Assembly (NCBI RefSeq): GCF_053078305.1
Contig: NZ_CP166879.1
Length of the DNA: 64,000 bases
Strand: one strand, 5' to 3'
Each line of letters opens with the position of its first letter. Position 1 is the stretch's first letter. Of the stretch, positions 60,160-63,140 are shown piece after piece. The notes beneath the pieces were generated by a model, which searched no databases, was not told the origin of the DNA, and worked only from the letters and a program-made list of their open reading frames with translations. The translations under genes were made by a program, and so were the position numbers.

Positions 60160-60290
60160 TTTATAGTCCTTACTTTATAAAATTCACAGGAAGAGGGGAA
60201 TTACGTAAATACTGAGAGTACATAAACGCCGTACCACGGCATTAATAAACGAGGTAACCAGCAGTACAGACAACCTGATAAAACTGTTTG

Positions 60291-60319
60291 GTATTACCTC
60301 ATTACAATGAGGTAATACT
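60291..60319. promoter_or_regulatory. Perfect 13-bp palindrome in a long AT-rich non-coding region
   Basis: GTATTACCTCATT aca AATGAGGTAATAC, about 130 bp upstream of the yfjJ-like start. Confidence 0.3.
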
Positions 60320-61111
60320 TCAGAATACAGTGAGGCTCTCTTAAACAGAGGACCAGTAAGAATTACAATGGCAAAAACACACCTCATAGAATTAAGTTTA
60401 AGGAAGTACCATTCAATCACTTACAGGAAGTAATCTGATCTTCACAAAAGTCAGCTATCGAATAGCCACAGGCAACATCGCTATTAATATTGCCGTACCA
60501 TTAAGTAAAAACAGAGACTCTGCAGAGAGAGCCTACAGATATTTAACCTCACAATAAGAAGATTATTTCATACAGAAAATATTATATTTACCCATACTTA
60601 TAAACTGTAACGGAGCTATAACGTACGAACTAAAGACAATATACTCTAATAGTGTTCTGGTACGTAACTAGTGTTAAATACGAACCAGACACACACTCAA
60701 TGGATTAACTTTCTCAATATTACGCTATGAGTGAGTGACATAATTTACACATAACTAATCCCCATACACCACCACACTGTAGCATATGGGGATAGACGCA
60801 TTACGCACATACAGAATACTCAGCATAAAGAGGAGTGACATTACGATAGAAAGAGACAACATAACAGATAACATAACCCCCATTAATAATACTAATTAAC
60901 CTAAATTATTTATTGAATACGAAAACAATGAAGGCCCCACCTCACCTCAGACTAAAGCCGACAATATCCTGAGCAACAGGATATCCAATAGTAAATAGTG
61001 GTTACACCAGTTATATTTACTGACTGACCTGTACCAGAGTTTTCTAATACAACGCTGACATGGTAAAGGCATTAGTCTCCTCCGCAAGTAGCAGAGGAGA
61101 CTATATGTTAG

Positions 61112-62578
61112 TCAACGATTAAGTCGTTCAGAGGTCAAAGTTAGGTGCGACACACAACGTTTTTCCCTCAATAACCGGTACAACTCTGTTTTGTTCATAC
61201 AGTAAATCCAGTAACCAGTTGATTTTATCCTTTTTCCGGAAACGGTTCGGACCACGCTGTAAAATGTCATTTTTTTCATACAGAGGATCCCCTTCTCAAT
61301 GCAATAGCTTTTTATCCAGTTGAAAAGTTCAAGCTCCTCTGGAATGAGTCGCACAGGTACGGTCAGGGCAGGGTTGTCAAAAGTTAACGGATTAGACAAC
61401 CGCACATACTCATTACCGTACCATATTGCTAATTCTCTCGCCATTTCTGCAATGTAAGGGGAAATCTCCCCCTCCTCACCGCTCGAATGGTAAATAAGTC
61501 CTGCCAGTCTTGCCATATACTCTGCATTTTTAGCAGCATATTCCCGGCAATGTCTTAAAGGCCCCAATCCCCCCAGCTTCGATTCCACATCATTGTAATA
61601 ATCCGTCCAGATTCTGGCAGCCTGAGGAGAAAAGTGAAGGCAACGTCGTTCACCACTCATCGCCAGACTTTCATCAATAAGCTCATTGATCCTCTGTTCA
61701 AACAAATCCTGATACTGTGATGAATAATTATCTCCGGTTATTATCCTTGTCCCCTGCGTTGATGTTGGTTGACACATCAAAAACCTTGCATGATGTCCTG
61801 ACGTTTTCACAAGTTCTTTTTTTCGCGTACAAAAACCTTTGTGGTAAACATCAGGCTGAATCATCGCCGACATCGTCAGTCTTGGCTCCTTCAAATTAAT
61901 TCCGGGAGATGATTTCCTGTCGATGAAAAGAGAACCTCCATCCCACAAAGTGTTAATAATTCCCAGTTTACTCATGGCCCGGCTGTCAAAAATTACCCCT
62001 CCTTCACTGGATACAAGAGCAAAAGAACGATTGCTATCGGAGTAATATTTTAACATTCCCTCTATCGTTGTCTCATTAAAAATTGTTCGACGTATCTGCG
62101 GCGGAACAGGAGACTTATTCAGATGCGTTTCAAGCTCTGATTCTGTTGCCTTGTAATCTTTACCGGCACGAATCTCTTTATGAAATTTTGATTCCAGCGC
62201 TTTTTGTTTTTGCTCCCATATTTCCTTTTCTGTGCTGTAATTCTCAACCAGTTTCGCGTATTCTTCCGCCAGGGCTTCATCCCTGAGATAAAATGCTTTC
62301 ATAAACACTTTATCCACGGTCGTTTTCCTTTCACCAGAATCAGCCAGAATCAGAGAGTAAAGATTAACAGGCCCACGTAAATTTCCAGGTCTGCACACGT
62401 CAATCTGATTCTGACAGGCAATTGAGATCGCTGTTAATGCGGATGTCGCCACCATAGCCAAAGGTGCCTGTGTATTTTTTTGAGTTTCAATTATTGCATT
62501 TCTCACCAGCGGTGGTAGTGCATATATCGGATAAGGATTTTCTGGTGCAAGTAAGCACATAAAAGCCTCTCTTTTCAT
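61112..62578 (-). CDS. YfjI-like (DUF3987-type) prophage protein
   Basis: 488-aa ORF, low GC; gene order alpA, yfjI-like, yfjJ-like mirrors CP4-57-type islands. Confidence 0.55.
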   Translation of the reverse strand: MKREAFMCLLAPENPYPIYALPPLVRNAIIETQKNTQAPLAMVATSALTAISIACQNQIDVCRPGNLRGPVNLYSLILADSGERKTTVDKVFMKAFYLRDEALAEEYAKLVENYSTEKEIWEQKQKALESKFHKEIRAGKDYKATESELETHLNKSPVPPQIRRTIFNETTIEGMLKYYSDSNRSFALVSSEGGVIFDSRAMSKLGIINTLWDGGSLFIDRKSSPGINLKEPRLTMSAMIQPDVYHKGFCTRKKELVKTSGHHARFLMCQPTSTQGTRIITGDNYSSQYQDLFEQRINELIDESLAMSGERRCLHFSPQAARIWTDYYNDVESKLGGLGPLRHCREYAAKNAEYMARLAGLIYHSSGEEGEISPYIAEMARELAIWYGNEYVRLSNPLTFDNPALTVPVRLIPEELELFNWIKSYCIEKGILCMKKMTFYSVVRTVSGKRIKSTGYWIYCMNKTELYRLLREKRCVSHLTLTSERLNR

Positions 62579-62797
62579 TAATGGGTTAGTAAAGTAGCAG
62601 CAACTCCCGCTATAATAGCGAAATAGCTGCTGTTCAGACCTAATGTTCTGAGAAATACAGAATATCTGTAGATCTGATGTTTAATAAACCGATAAGGTTA
62701 ATTCAGTTCATACTGTGTTATTTACCACGAAATATCATTCATGTTTCTCATTCTTAACACCTCCTAAAATTATTTCACTAACACCTTCCCCCCGGTC

Positions 62798-63115
62798 TTT
62801 TTCCTTTCTCAGGAATCAGCCAGAACCATAGTGTAAATATTAACGGGCCCACGTAAATTTCCGGGGTTGCACACGTCAATCTGATTCTGACAGGCAATTG
62901 ACATCGCTGTTAATAATGATGTTGTAGTCATAGCCAGAGATGCTTTTTCATTGTGTTGAGTTTCAATTATTGCATTTCCAGTCATTGATGGTTGCGCATA
63001 TACTGGATACGGAGTATCCGGTTTGATGTAAGACATAAATATTTCTTTTTTCGTAATAACTTTCGGTTATAGCAGCTATTTCCGCTACAATAGCAACAAT
63101 AGCTGCTATACAGAC
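62798..63115 (-). repeat. About 320-bp direct repeat duplicating the 5' end and promoter region of the yfjI-like gene
   Basis: Matches 62320..62640 at most positions; includes a 75-codon ORF (62809..63036) paralogous to the yfjI-like N-terminus and a CTATAAT / CTACAAT box flanked by AGCAGC...GCTGCT. Confidence 0.55.
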
Positions 63116-63140
63116 TGGATATACTGAAAATACAGACAGT

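Follow-up and report, generated by a model that had tools for sequence, protein, structure and literature searches.

We analyzed a 64,000-nucleotide (nt) stretch of contig NZ_CP166879.1 from assembly GCF_053078305.1 (here called the window, whose positions serve as coordinates throughout), which carries part of a CP4-type island. An alpA-like gene, a relic of a DUF3987 gene, a yfjI-like gene, a 952-nt gap, and a yfjJ-like gene follow one another in this order, all on the minus strand. The gap (60160 to 61111), which separates the yfjI-like from the yfjJ-like gene, is non-coding and composite: its smaller part is inherited with yfjI, and the rest is an AT-rich module linked to the yfjJ-like gene, whose product is a predicted Rep-like nuclease of the HUH type. 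At the far end of this module lies a block of about 30 bp that appears to be the single constrained element in what otherwise looks like an ordinary, widespread, and unannotated control region. We propose that the module may well comprise the promoter/operator region and the long leader of the Rep-like gene. As a fixed cis partner of an HUH Rep-like gene, the block would offer a handle on the poorly understood regulation or movement of such islands. The original prediction for this region, a model's reading of the letters of the window, had treated the gap as a non-coding leader and had missed both the conserved block at its far end and the linkage of the gap to the yfjJ-like gene rather than to yfjI.

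A conserved block upstream of yfjJ-like genes

The block occupies 60880 to 60914 on the minus strand and reads AATTTAGGTTAATTAGTATTATTAATGG in the sense direction (it can also be given as AATAAATAATTTAGGTTAATTAGTATTATTAATGG or AAGGTTAATTAGTATTAT), with an 18-nt core at 60886 to 60903. Its consensus over about 30 nt is AATTAAGGTTAATTAGTATTAT, followed about 6 nt further on by a semiconserved (R)GAAGT. It is the sole similarity among the upstream regions from Escherichia, Citrobacter, Erwinia, Yersinia, and Limnobaculum, always lying on the strand of the gene, and is recognizable in Rouxiella in a degenerate form only. The distant protein relatives (those from Erwinia, Citrobacter, Yersinia, and Limnobaculum) have 350 to 1,450 nt of non-coding DNA upstream, and the core is conserved at 16 to 18 of its 18 positions while the proteins are just 37 to 60% identical. 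With up to two mismatches allowed, the 18-mer AAGGTTARTTARTATTAT is found once in the window (with one mismatch), against 0.01 occurrences expected, and ten related loci hold exactly one copy each, upstream of the gene and on the same strand.

A metagenome scan with an extended pattern recovered 88 loci, in 69 of which a yfjJ-like open reading frame (ORF) follows downstream in the same orientation; the remaining 19 comprise 17 whose sequence stops within 900 nt of the motif, one that stops at 1,134 nt, and one that is interrupted by an insertion sequence. The distance from the motif to the ATG in these loci ranges from 119 to 1,157 nt and falls into lineage-specific classes. Among E. coli genomes, the block is present over a full length of 60 nt in 1,572, a number that rises to 2,386 when core-only matches are included; all four core-only matches that were inspected lie upstream of a Gp2/YagK-type gene, with a small hha gene in between in three of them. 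These comparisons establish the block as a conserved element with linkage to yfjJ-like genes. A scan of viral contigs with the 18-mer returned seven matches, six of them without a yfjJ-like gene; by our estimate, an AT-rich 18-mer would yield roughly this many by chance, which makes the scan uninformative. The block is predicted to be unstructured, with 60870 to 60925 folding at -4.2 kcal/mol (z score, -0.27).

Two tandem 12-nt repeats (60854 to 60877, minus strand; GTTATGTTATCT and GTTATGTTGTCT in the sense direction), detected by Tandem Repeats Finder (TRF), start 9 nt downstream of the core, and a third near-copy follows further downstream. Across 44 representatives, whose lineages are not independent of one another, direct repeats are overrepresented on the downstream side of the block (p of about 1e-6 relative to the upstream side and about 1e-5 relative to shuffled sequences); the lineage of the window is barely above the shuffles, with three copies versus 2.2 expected. 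In a sister lineage (L035, 3501 to 4668; L037, 3501 to 4779; L023, 3851 to 5001; L-numbers denote the related loci used for comparison), a small gene of the hha/ymoA family is found between the block and the yfjJ-like gene. Members of this lineage have arrays of a 13-nt direct repeat after the block (consensus, about CCNTGTAATTCTA), the copy number of which varies from 3 to 8 among the metagenome variants. A decayed hha gene in the leader of the window lineage was considered and rejected, as tblastn searches recovered no remnant there (E > 0.8).

The setting of the block outside Escherichia is different. In loci from Erwinia, Yersinia, Citrobacter, and Rouxiella (L017, L021, L031, L032, and L034), the usual order is the yfjJ-like gene followed directly by alpA, and the non-coding region is bordered at its far side by a divergent operon with DUF932, GTPase, antirestriction, RadC, and CbeA-type genes. 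Because this operon adjoins the non-coding region, the block in those genera sits in a divergent control region.

A composite and drifting gap

The gap was aligned across 14 copies, with diversity (pi) computed from eight co-linear copies and consensus folds from 11. In two of the related loci (L005 and L013), the neighbor on the far side of the gap is an unrelated gene coding for about 600 aa, and in a third, located on a plasmid (L006), it is a DUF4942 gene. L005 and L013 retain the yfjJ-adjacent sequence up to about 60925 and lose similarity beyond that point; in L006, similarity is kept until the end of the record. Since these loci keep the yfjJ-side sequence without yfjI, the segment from 60160 to 60925 belongs with the yfjJ-like gene and that from 60926 to 61111 belongs with yfjI. 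Thus, the gap is a composite of the tail of yfjI and a yfjJ-linked non-coding module, with about 770 of its 952 nt going with the yfjJ-like gene rather than with yfjI. The 3' flank of yfjI, which is coinherited with that gene on the minus strand, has a low diversity (pi, 0.045). The module, an AT-rich leader or upstream region on the same strand, is retained when its other neighbor differs, and its sense strand is 39% T and has more G than C.

The diversity of the module (pi, 0.084) can be compared with values of 0.10, 0.029, and 0.012 at the third, first, and second codon positions, respectively, of the yfjJ-like gene. Of 30 distinct gap runs (indels) in the module, 25 are not multiples of 3, and deletions of 40 to 52 nt are tolerated. 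By these measures, the module evolves at about the neutral rate.

On its plus strand, the gap consists of 38.6% A, 20.4% C, 16.2% G, and 24.9% T, with a GC fraction of 0.33 to 0.41. The original prediction had called this strand strongly A+C rich, and our analysis bears this out: with an A+C fraction of 0.59, the gap is the most extreme 950-nt segment of the 64 kb (mean, 0.507; standard deviation, 0.025). As a consequence of this skew, the sense strand of the operon is U and G rich. The same prediction had stated that no ORF of 60 aa or more is present; there is indeed no credible gene in the gap, but a 78-aa ORF with a GTG start does occur at 60184 to 60420 on the minus strand. This ORF was rejected as a coding gene because it has no Pfam match and its span contains several 1-nt indels and one 4-nt indel in relatives, and we take the gap as a whole to be non-coding. 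Also rejected was an origin of the gap in three decayed 300-bp units, which had been suggested by a three-copy 17-mer at an exact spacing of 300 nt, as an alignment of the thirds has long gaps and a column identity of only 55%, and TRF recovers nothing.

At least 80% of the gap is present in 1,410 of 5,426 complete E. coli genomes, including Nissle 1917 and O157:H7 strains, at 76 to 98% identity, and no annotated feature underlies it among the matches listed. The phage collection that we searched with the gap yielded no match. Matches in plasmid records are restricted to Escherichia, and several of these records are megabase sized, which suggests chromosomal sequence filed as plasmid. A species-wide genome scan with the YfjJ-like protein recovered just three loci, all in Escherichia-like DNA. 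Our search of the literature on YfjJ/YagK, "TOTE" (see below), and yfjI islands found nothing on the gap region.

The YfjJ-like protein is a predicted HUH Rep-like nuclease

The yfjJ-like gene (59566 to 60159, minus strand), which we delineated by its ORF, weak Pfam matches, motifs, and predicted fold, is labeled "inovirus-type Gp2 protein" in RefSeq, and its relatives carry the name "rolling circle replication-associated protein" in the sources. Both of its Pfam matches are below the respective cutoffs: PF23343 (REP_ORF2-G2P) scores 20.2 bits against 27.8, and PF11726 (the YagK/YfjJ family) scores 18.2 bits against 25.8; the relatives also have weak precomputed matches. A sequence search of the PDB with the protein returned only spurious matches to designed Kelch repeats. 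Identity to YfjJ and YagK of E. coli K-12 is no more than 17 to 18%, with the HxH and Y..K columns nonetheless aligning. In a family alignment of 31 sequences, the HxH motif (H87-I-H89, residues 87 to 89) is at least 90% conserved, and Y157 and K160 of a YxxK motif, found within SYLAK, are invariant. An AlphaFold2 model of the protein has a predicted local distance difference test score (pLDDT) of 87.6, and a Foldseek search with it against the BFVD viral models gave 79 matches at E values of 1e-3 or less; most are unnamed, and those with names include inovirus Gp2, parvovirus NS1, the Rep proteins of circular Rep-encoding single-stranded DNA (CRESS) viruses, and microvirus initiators. The model and the motifs together indicate an HUH fold with the HUH motifs, and on this basis we conclude that the YfjJ-like protein is predicted to be an HUH Rep-like nuclease.

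A further motif, RGRPR (residues 181 to 185; 59605 to 59619), is nearly invariant at the C terminus in the 31 sequences. RGRPR is the core of the AT-hook. YfjJ and YagK of K-12 lack this tail. Homology to other islands stops right after RGRPR, at about 59604, where the island in the window is cut and where remnants of IS66 and of a methyltransferase start in relatives; the last approximately 12 codons of the yfjJ-like gene are therefore foreign.

A proposed promoter/operator with a drifting leader, or possibly a rolling-circle origin

The best explanation for the segment from 60160 to 60925, to which we give about an even chance, is that it is the promoter/operator region and long leader of the Rep-like gene. 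The gap as a whole would then be non-coding backbone of a CP4-type island, in two parts. The block would represent a core promoter, its conserved TATTAT serving as the -10 element, with an operator in and just upstream of the spacer. Either the YfjJ-like protein or a partner (AlpA, for example) would bind this operator, and the lineage-specific direct repeats past the block would offer additional binding sites. The approximately 740 nt from the block to the ATG would be transcribed as an AT-rich, U-rich leader that drifts in sequence and length and whose hairpins are mostly unconserved. The presence of hha between the block and the yfjJ-like gene in some lineages fits the block as the start of an operon.

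A precedent of a kind is offered by the yagK-yagL spacer of CP4-6 in K-12, which belongs to a distant paralogue; an AT-rich block, GGATAGGTATTATATAAT, precedes that gene by about 190 nt. This block coincides with a TTTAGA-16-TATAAT promoter, which was recovered upstream of yagK by systematic evolution of ligands by exponential enrichment (SELEX) with the RpoD (sigma-70) holoenzyme, in a spacer that is bound by H-NS (PMC3946193). The spacer differs from the module described here in that it has a different block sequence and a length of 271 nt only, and its protein lacks the AT-hook.

Several points weigh against a promoter/operator. A consensus sigma-70 scan of the minus strand of the window calls no promoter at the block, and no -35 hexamer is conserved across lineages. 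The 18 to 25 contiguous conserved bases exceed what a promoter needs, and a distance to the ATG that varies from 119 to 1,157 nt is unusually variable for a promoter with a 5' untranslated region (UTR). Further, the yagK analogy runs through a paralogue that is only 17% identical. Were the block a promoter/operator and nothing more, the result would be a useful but ordinary annotation. One specific regulatory scheme, in which AlpA acts as a Q-like antiterminator on a terminator-bearing leader, was rejected. In the AlpA of Pseudomonas aeruginosa, contact residues extend to position 142 or beyond, the N-terminal part occupies the RNA exit channel, and the site is GGGACG (PMC9371919), whereas the AlpA-like protein of the island has 82 aa with little beyond the helix-turn-helix (HTH), and the block is unlike GGGACG.

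The chief alternative, which we consider tentative, treats the block as the site at which the HUH YfjJ-like protein nicks a rolling-circle-type origin for replication or mobilization; the repeats would be the binding locus of this protein, and the leader might function in the manner of a single-strand origin. The protein's HUH fold and motifs and the name given to its relatives are in line with such a role, as is the AT-hook, which would suit an AT-rich target. The block is also far more conserved than the surrounding protein-coding DNA, a pattern typical of nick sites, and the homology between differently arranged islands starts about 30 nt upstream of it. The leader also folds more stably than expected by chance, and does so on both strands. 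Repeats are present where a binding locus would be expected, namely, as 13-nt arrays of up to eight variable copies in the sister lineage and as two 12-nt copies here, but in the window lineage their number hardly exceeds that in the shuffles. In rolling-circle systems, the Ff intergenic region lies just upstream of gene II, and plasmids that replicate in this way pair a conserved nic with a variable bind locus. Judged by such general knowledge, the module resembles known origins in being a non-coding region before an HUH Rep-like gene with a short conserved sequence, variable repeats, and hairpin-rich DNA. It departs from them in that no hairpin presents the candidate nick site: the folding energy of the block is near random, and a 5-bp A/T stem around the site is broken in several genera. 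Moreover, gpII of Ff and the A protein of phiX are much larger than the YfjJ-like protein (about 190 aa), and the element here is chromosomal.

The core of the block, TAGTATTAT or TAATATTAT, is one base off the nonamers at which the Rep proteins of CRESS viruses and geminiviruses nick, TAGTATTAC and TAATATTAC; we estimate that an AT-rich 30-mer would contain a nonamer-like match by chance in a few percent of cases, which makes this a weak lead. Genera with just 95 to 160 nt between block and ATG leave no space for a single-strand origin, and in K-12 the analogous block of yagK coincides with a promoter. Our literature search found no documented circular or single-stranded form of the island, and no circular single-stranded stage is known for this element. 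A nick-site origin is compatible with an overlapping autoregulated promoter, and the two functions could thus coincide in the block.

The stronger proposition that CP4-type YfjJ-like proteins are active HUH nickases with the block and the lineage-specific repeats as their origin is, in our estimation, more doubtful. If it is true, large tRNA-linked islands, including the backbones of pathogenicity islands (in O157:H7, uropathogenic E. coli, and Nissle 1917), would carry an unrecognized rolling-circle replication or mobilization module, and this module would include the PrimPol-helicase gene that follows the yfjJ-like gene in intact islands (see below). Between about a quarter and nearly half of complete E. 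coli genomes carry these islands, which are also present in other Enterobacterales, and an origin function of the block would change the view of the mobility of large E. coli islands.

Hairpins of the gap

Hairpins in the gap exceed the number expected by chance: relative to shuffled sequences, the folding of 60160 to 60930 has z scores of -4.85 and -5.92 for the two strands. The original prediction had suggested a long structured 5' UTR or noncoding RNA (ncRNA), that is, a riboregulatory leader whose folds are functional. We regard this as unlikely, although the fold excess, the recurrence of leaders of 740 to 1,150 nt in several lineages, and a few individual elements speak for it. Among the latter is an inverted repeat whose two 13-bp arms (60291 to 60303 and 60306 to 60318; no strand assigned) match perfectly, as had been predicted, and which precedes the yfjJ-like ATG by about 130 nt. 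In most relatives it is a longer, imperfect inverted repeat, the outer arms of which (ATTACC/GGTAAT) are invariant in all while the inner part is variable; it is perfect here because of a 4-nt deletion. A hairpin at 60757 to 60790 (CCCCATAC...GTATGGGG) has a compensatory change affecting both of its sides in L010 (CTCCATAC...GTATGGAG); local signs that pairing is under selection are otherwise few in the leader. The 8-bp hairpin predicted at 60965 to 60990 (no strand assigned) does exist here but is absent from half of the relatives, the second arm reading cactctat in L003, L004, L011, L014, and L015.

The broader evidence goes against a functional fold. The consensus of 11 copies over 847 columns, as computed with RNAalifold, reaches only -42 kcal/mol on the plus strand and -54 kcal/mol on the minus strand versus -149 and -204 kcal/mol for the single sequence, and the predictions for the two strands have only 20 base pairs in common. 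In a strand test by wobble asymmetry, these few shared helices (20 pairs) contained 2 wobble cells on one strand and 7 on the other. An Rfam search over 59000 to 64000 gave nothing relevant at E values of 1 or less, the one match being a spurious microRNA. There is no sequence common to the leaders of different lineages, the module diverges at a near-neutral rate with many indels and tolerates large deletions, and the comparable z scores of both strands point to palindromes at the DNA level rather than to one RNA. The lack of an Rfam match, the weak consensus fold, and the free drift leave a globally structured RNA unsupported and favor a drifting leader, which may be long and unconstrained.

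Least probable of all is that the gap is an origin of vegetative replication (oriV) served by the helicase-like YfjI, as in Staphylococcus aureus pathogenicity islands (SaPIs), phage-inducible chromosomal islands (PICIs), and the recently described PIME mobilizable islands, all of which place the origin immediately past the replicase gene, in the case of PIMEs in the sequence downstream of repA (bioRxiv 10.64898/2026.01.12.698999): the gap does lie directly downstream of yfjI, is AT rich and rich in inverted repeats, and YfjI matches the phage "DNA helicase" family phrog_2373 (E = 1e-61) in a shared module order of int, alpA, replicase, and non-coding stretch, but most of the non-coding DNA here is linked to the next gene rather than to the replicase, the gap contains no iteron array (searches for families of at least three long repeats gave none), and only 153 nt follow yfjI in CP4-57 of K-12.

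The stem-loop after yfjI and the state of yfjI

Just past the yfjI stop codon, on the minus strand, lies a strong stem-loop (61073 to 61103; -25 kcal/mol; z score, -7.5), which shows compensating changes in L011. The hairpin that the original prediction had placed at 61066 to 61095 corresponds to this element, which is real but shifted in position. It lacks the U tract that would follow the GC-rich stem of an intrinsic terminator, the tail after the stem reading AAUGCCUUUACC, and a terminator scan does not list it. The stem-loop most likely marks or stabilizes the 3' end of an alpA-yfjI transcript.

The yfjI-like gene itself (61112 to 62578, minus strand; DUF3987, helicase-like), identified from its ORF, Pfam, and comparison with K-12, has a RefSeq start that corresponds to 62560. 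It carries a run of seven T's at 61264 to 61270 where every related locus has eight, and the resulting -1 frameshift replaces about 46 residues at the C terminus of YfjI and shifts its stop codon to 61112 from about 61134. The displaced stop accounts for the length of the gap, which is 952 nt here versus 974 nt in relatives. The shortened tract is either a true inactivating mutation or a homopolymer sequencing error.

An ancient relic of yfjI

Upstream of yfjI, on the minus strand, lies a relic comprising the upstream element of yfjI and about 97 codons of its 5' end (62765 to 63130), with an open frame of 75 aa at 62809 to 63036. The original prediction had described the 5' region of yfjI and a promoter-like box as duplicated about 480 bp upstream. 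The duplication is real, with an offset of 476 bp in both of its segments (62289 to 62576 versus 62765 to 63052, 288 nt, 77% identity; 62622 to 62654 versus 63098 to 63130, 33 nt, 76% identity), and the encoded sequences are 67% identical over 75 aa. The suggestion that it marks replication slippage or a recombination hotspot finds no support, as the copies are 23% diverged and the relic, already annotated by RefSeq as a partial DUF3987 pseudogene, is present in about 1,400 of the 5,426 complete E. coli genomes in several diverged forms, 83 to 99% identical to that of the window. Matches of at least 95% come from 270 genomes and always correspond to a truncated DUF3987 feature; those of 83 to 86% represent the same relic in other island lineages (UTI89 and O157:H7), and its identity to full-length yfjI genes reaches about 79% at most. 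Because diverged forms are widespread and no close full-length yfjI exists, the relic predates the radiation of the islands. One sampled lineage (L011) is without it, with alpA followed directly by yfjI. Sequence comparison thus identifies the relic as an ancient, fixed pseudogene with no sign of recent slippage or an assembly problem, and the duplication calls for no further attention.

The yfjI start is preceded, at a distance of about 40 nt, by a nested inverted repeat (62596 to 62637, minus strand; -18.1 kcal/mol) in which AGCAGC...GCTGCT flanks GCTATTATAGC; this is what the original prediction had called a CTATAAT box. The relic has its own copy (63068 to 63110, minus strand; -23.7 kcal/mol; z score, -4.2), which is better preserved, with perfect outer arms of 13 bp. 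Both copies keep the nested arrangement ATAGCAGCTATT...GCTATTGTAGC...AATAGCTGCTAT, the one in the relic being the stronger, and the pattern AGCAGC...GCTATTRTAGC...GCTGCT is conserved throughout the lineages as well as in the relic. The inverted repeat, rather than the coding remnant, may be the reason for the persistence of the relic. On the sense strand of the yfjI-side copy, G-U pairs maintain the pairing, a hint of an RNA hairpin or an operator in the interval from alpA to yfjI. Directly before the inverted repeat of the relic, a 19-nt imperfect inverted repeat (63108 to 63155) extends across the alpA stop codon, so that two successive stem-loops lie between alpA and the relic.

The island and its neighborhood

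The identification of the locus as a CP4-like island, as originally predicted, is well founded. The alpA-like regulator gene (63141 to 63389, minus strand) is supported by its ORF and a PF05930 match (E = 2.1e-13; 50.4 bits against a cutoff of 21); YfjI matches DUF3987 (PF13148) with an E value of 1.6e-83. The island shares gene order and orientation with CP4-57 of K-12, which likewise has a PF05930 AlpA and a DUF3987 YfjI, the latter 41% identical to that of the island. It differs from CP4-57 in having a yfjI-yfjJ spacing of 952 rather than 153 nt and in possessing the relic and the conserved block, and the YfjJ of CP4-57, which has no RGRPR tail, is 18% identical to the protein here. Also unlike CP4-57, the island appears to sit at thrW, judging from the closest genomes: about 98% of the length from 59500 to 64000 aligns to E. 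coli chromosomes at 98 to 99.4% identity, and in the best-annotated matching genome the segment is 2.7 kb from tRNA-Thr (thrW) and proA, i.e., at the CP4-6 site. In that genome, tRNA-Thr is 2.7 kb past the point corresponding to the end of the window, with no integrase between it and alpA. An integrase is present in sister islands, and the window ends before the tRNA/integrase end of the island.

In intact sister islands, the yfjJ-like gene is followed by a gene for a 786-aa fusion of a PrimPol and an SF2 helicase (L004, 1609 to 3969; L011, 1 to 2282; L013, 1 to 2282), which is missing from the window. RefSeq names its product [quoted passage not shown]; a literature search on this name found no paper using "TOTE." Upstream of alpA, a second non-coding stretch (63390 to 64000) has 41% A on the plus strand, an AT skew of 0.25, and a GC fraction down to 0.25, and it contains a 20-nt tandem repeat at 63550 to 63587.

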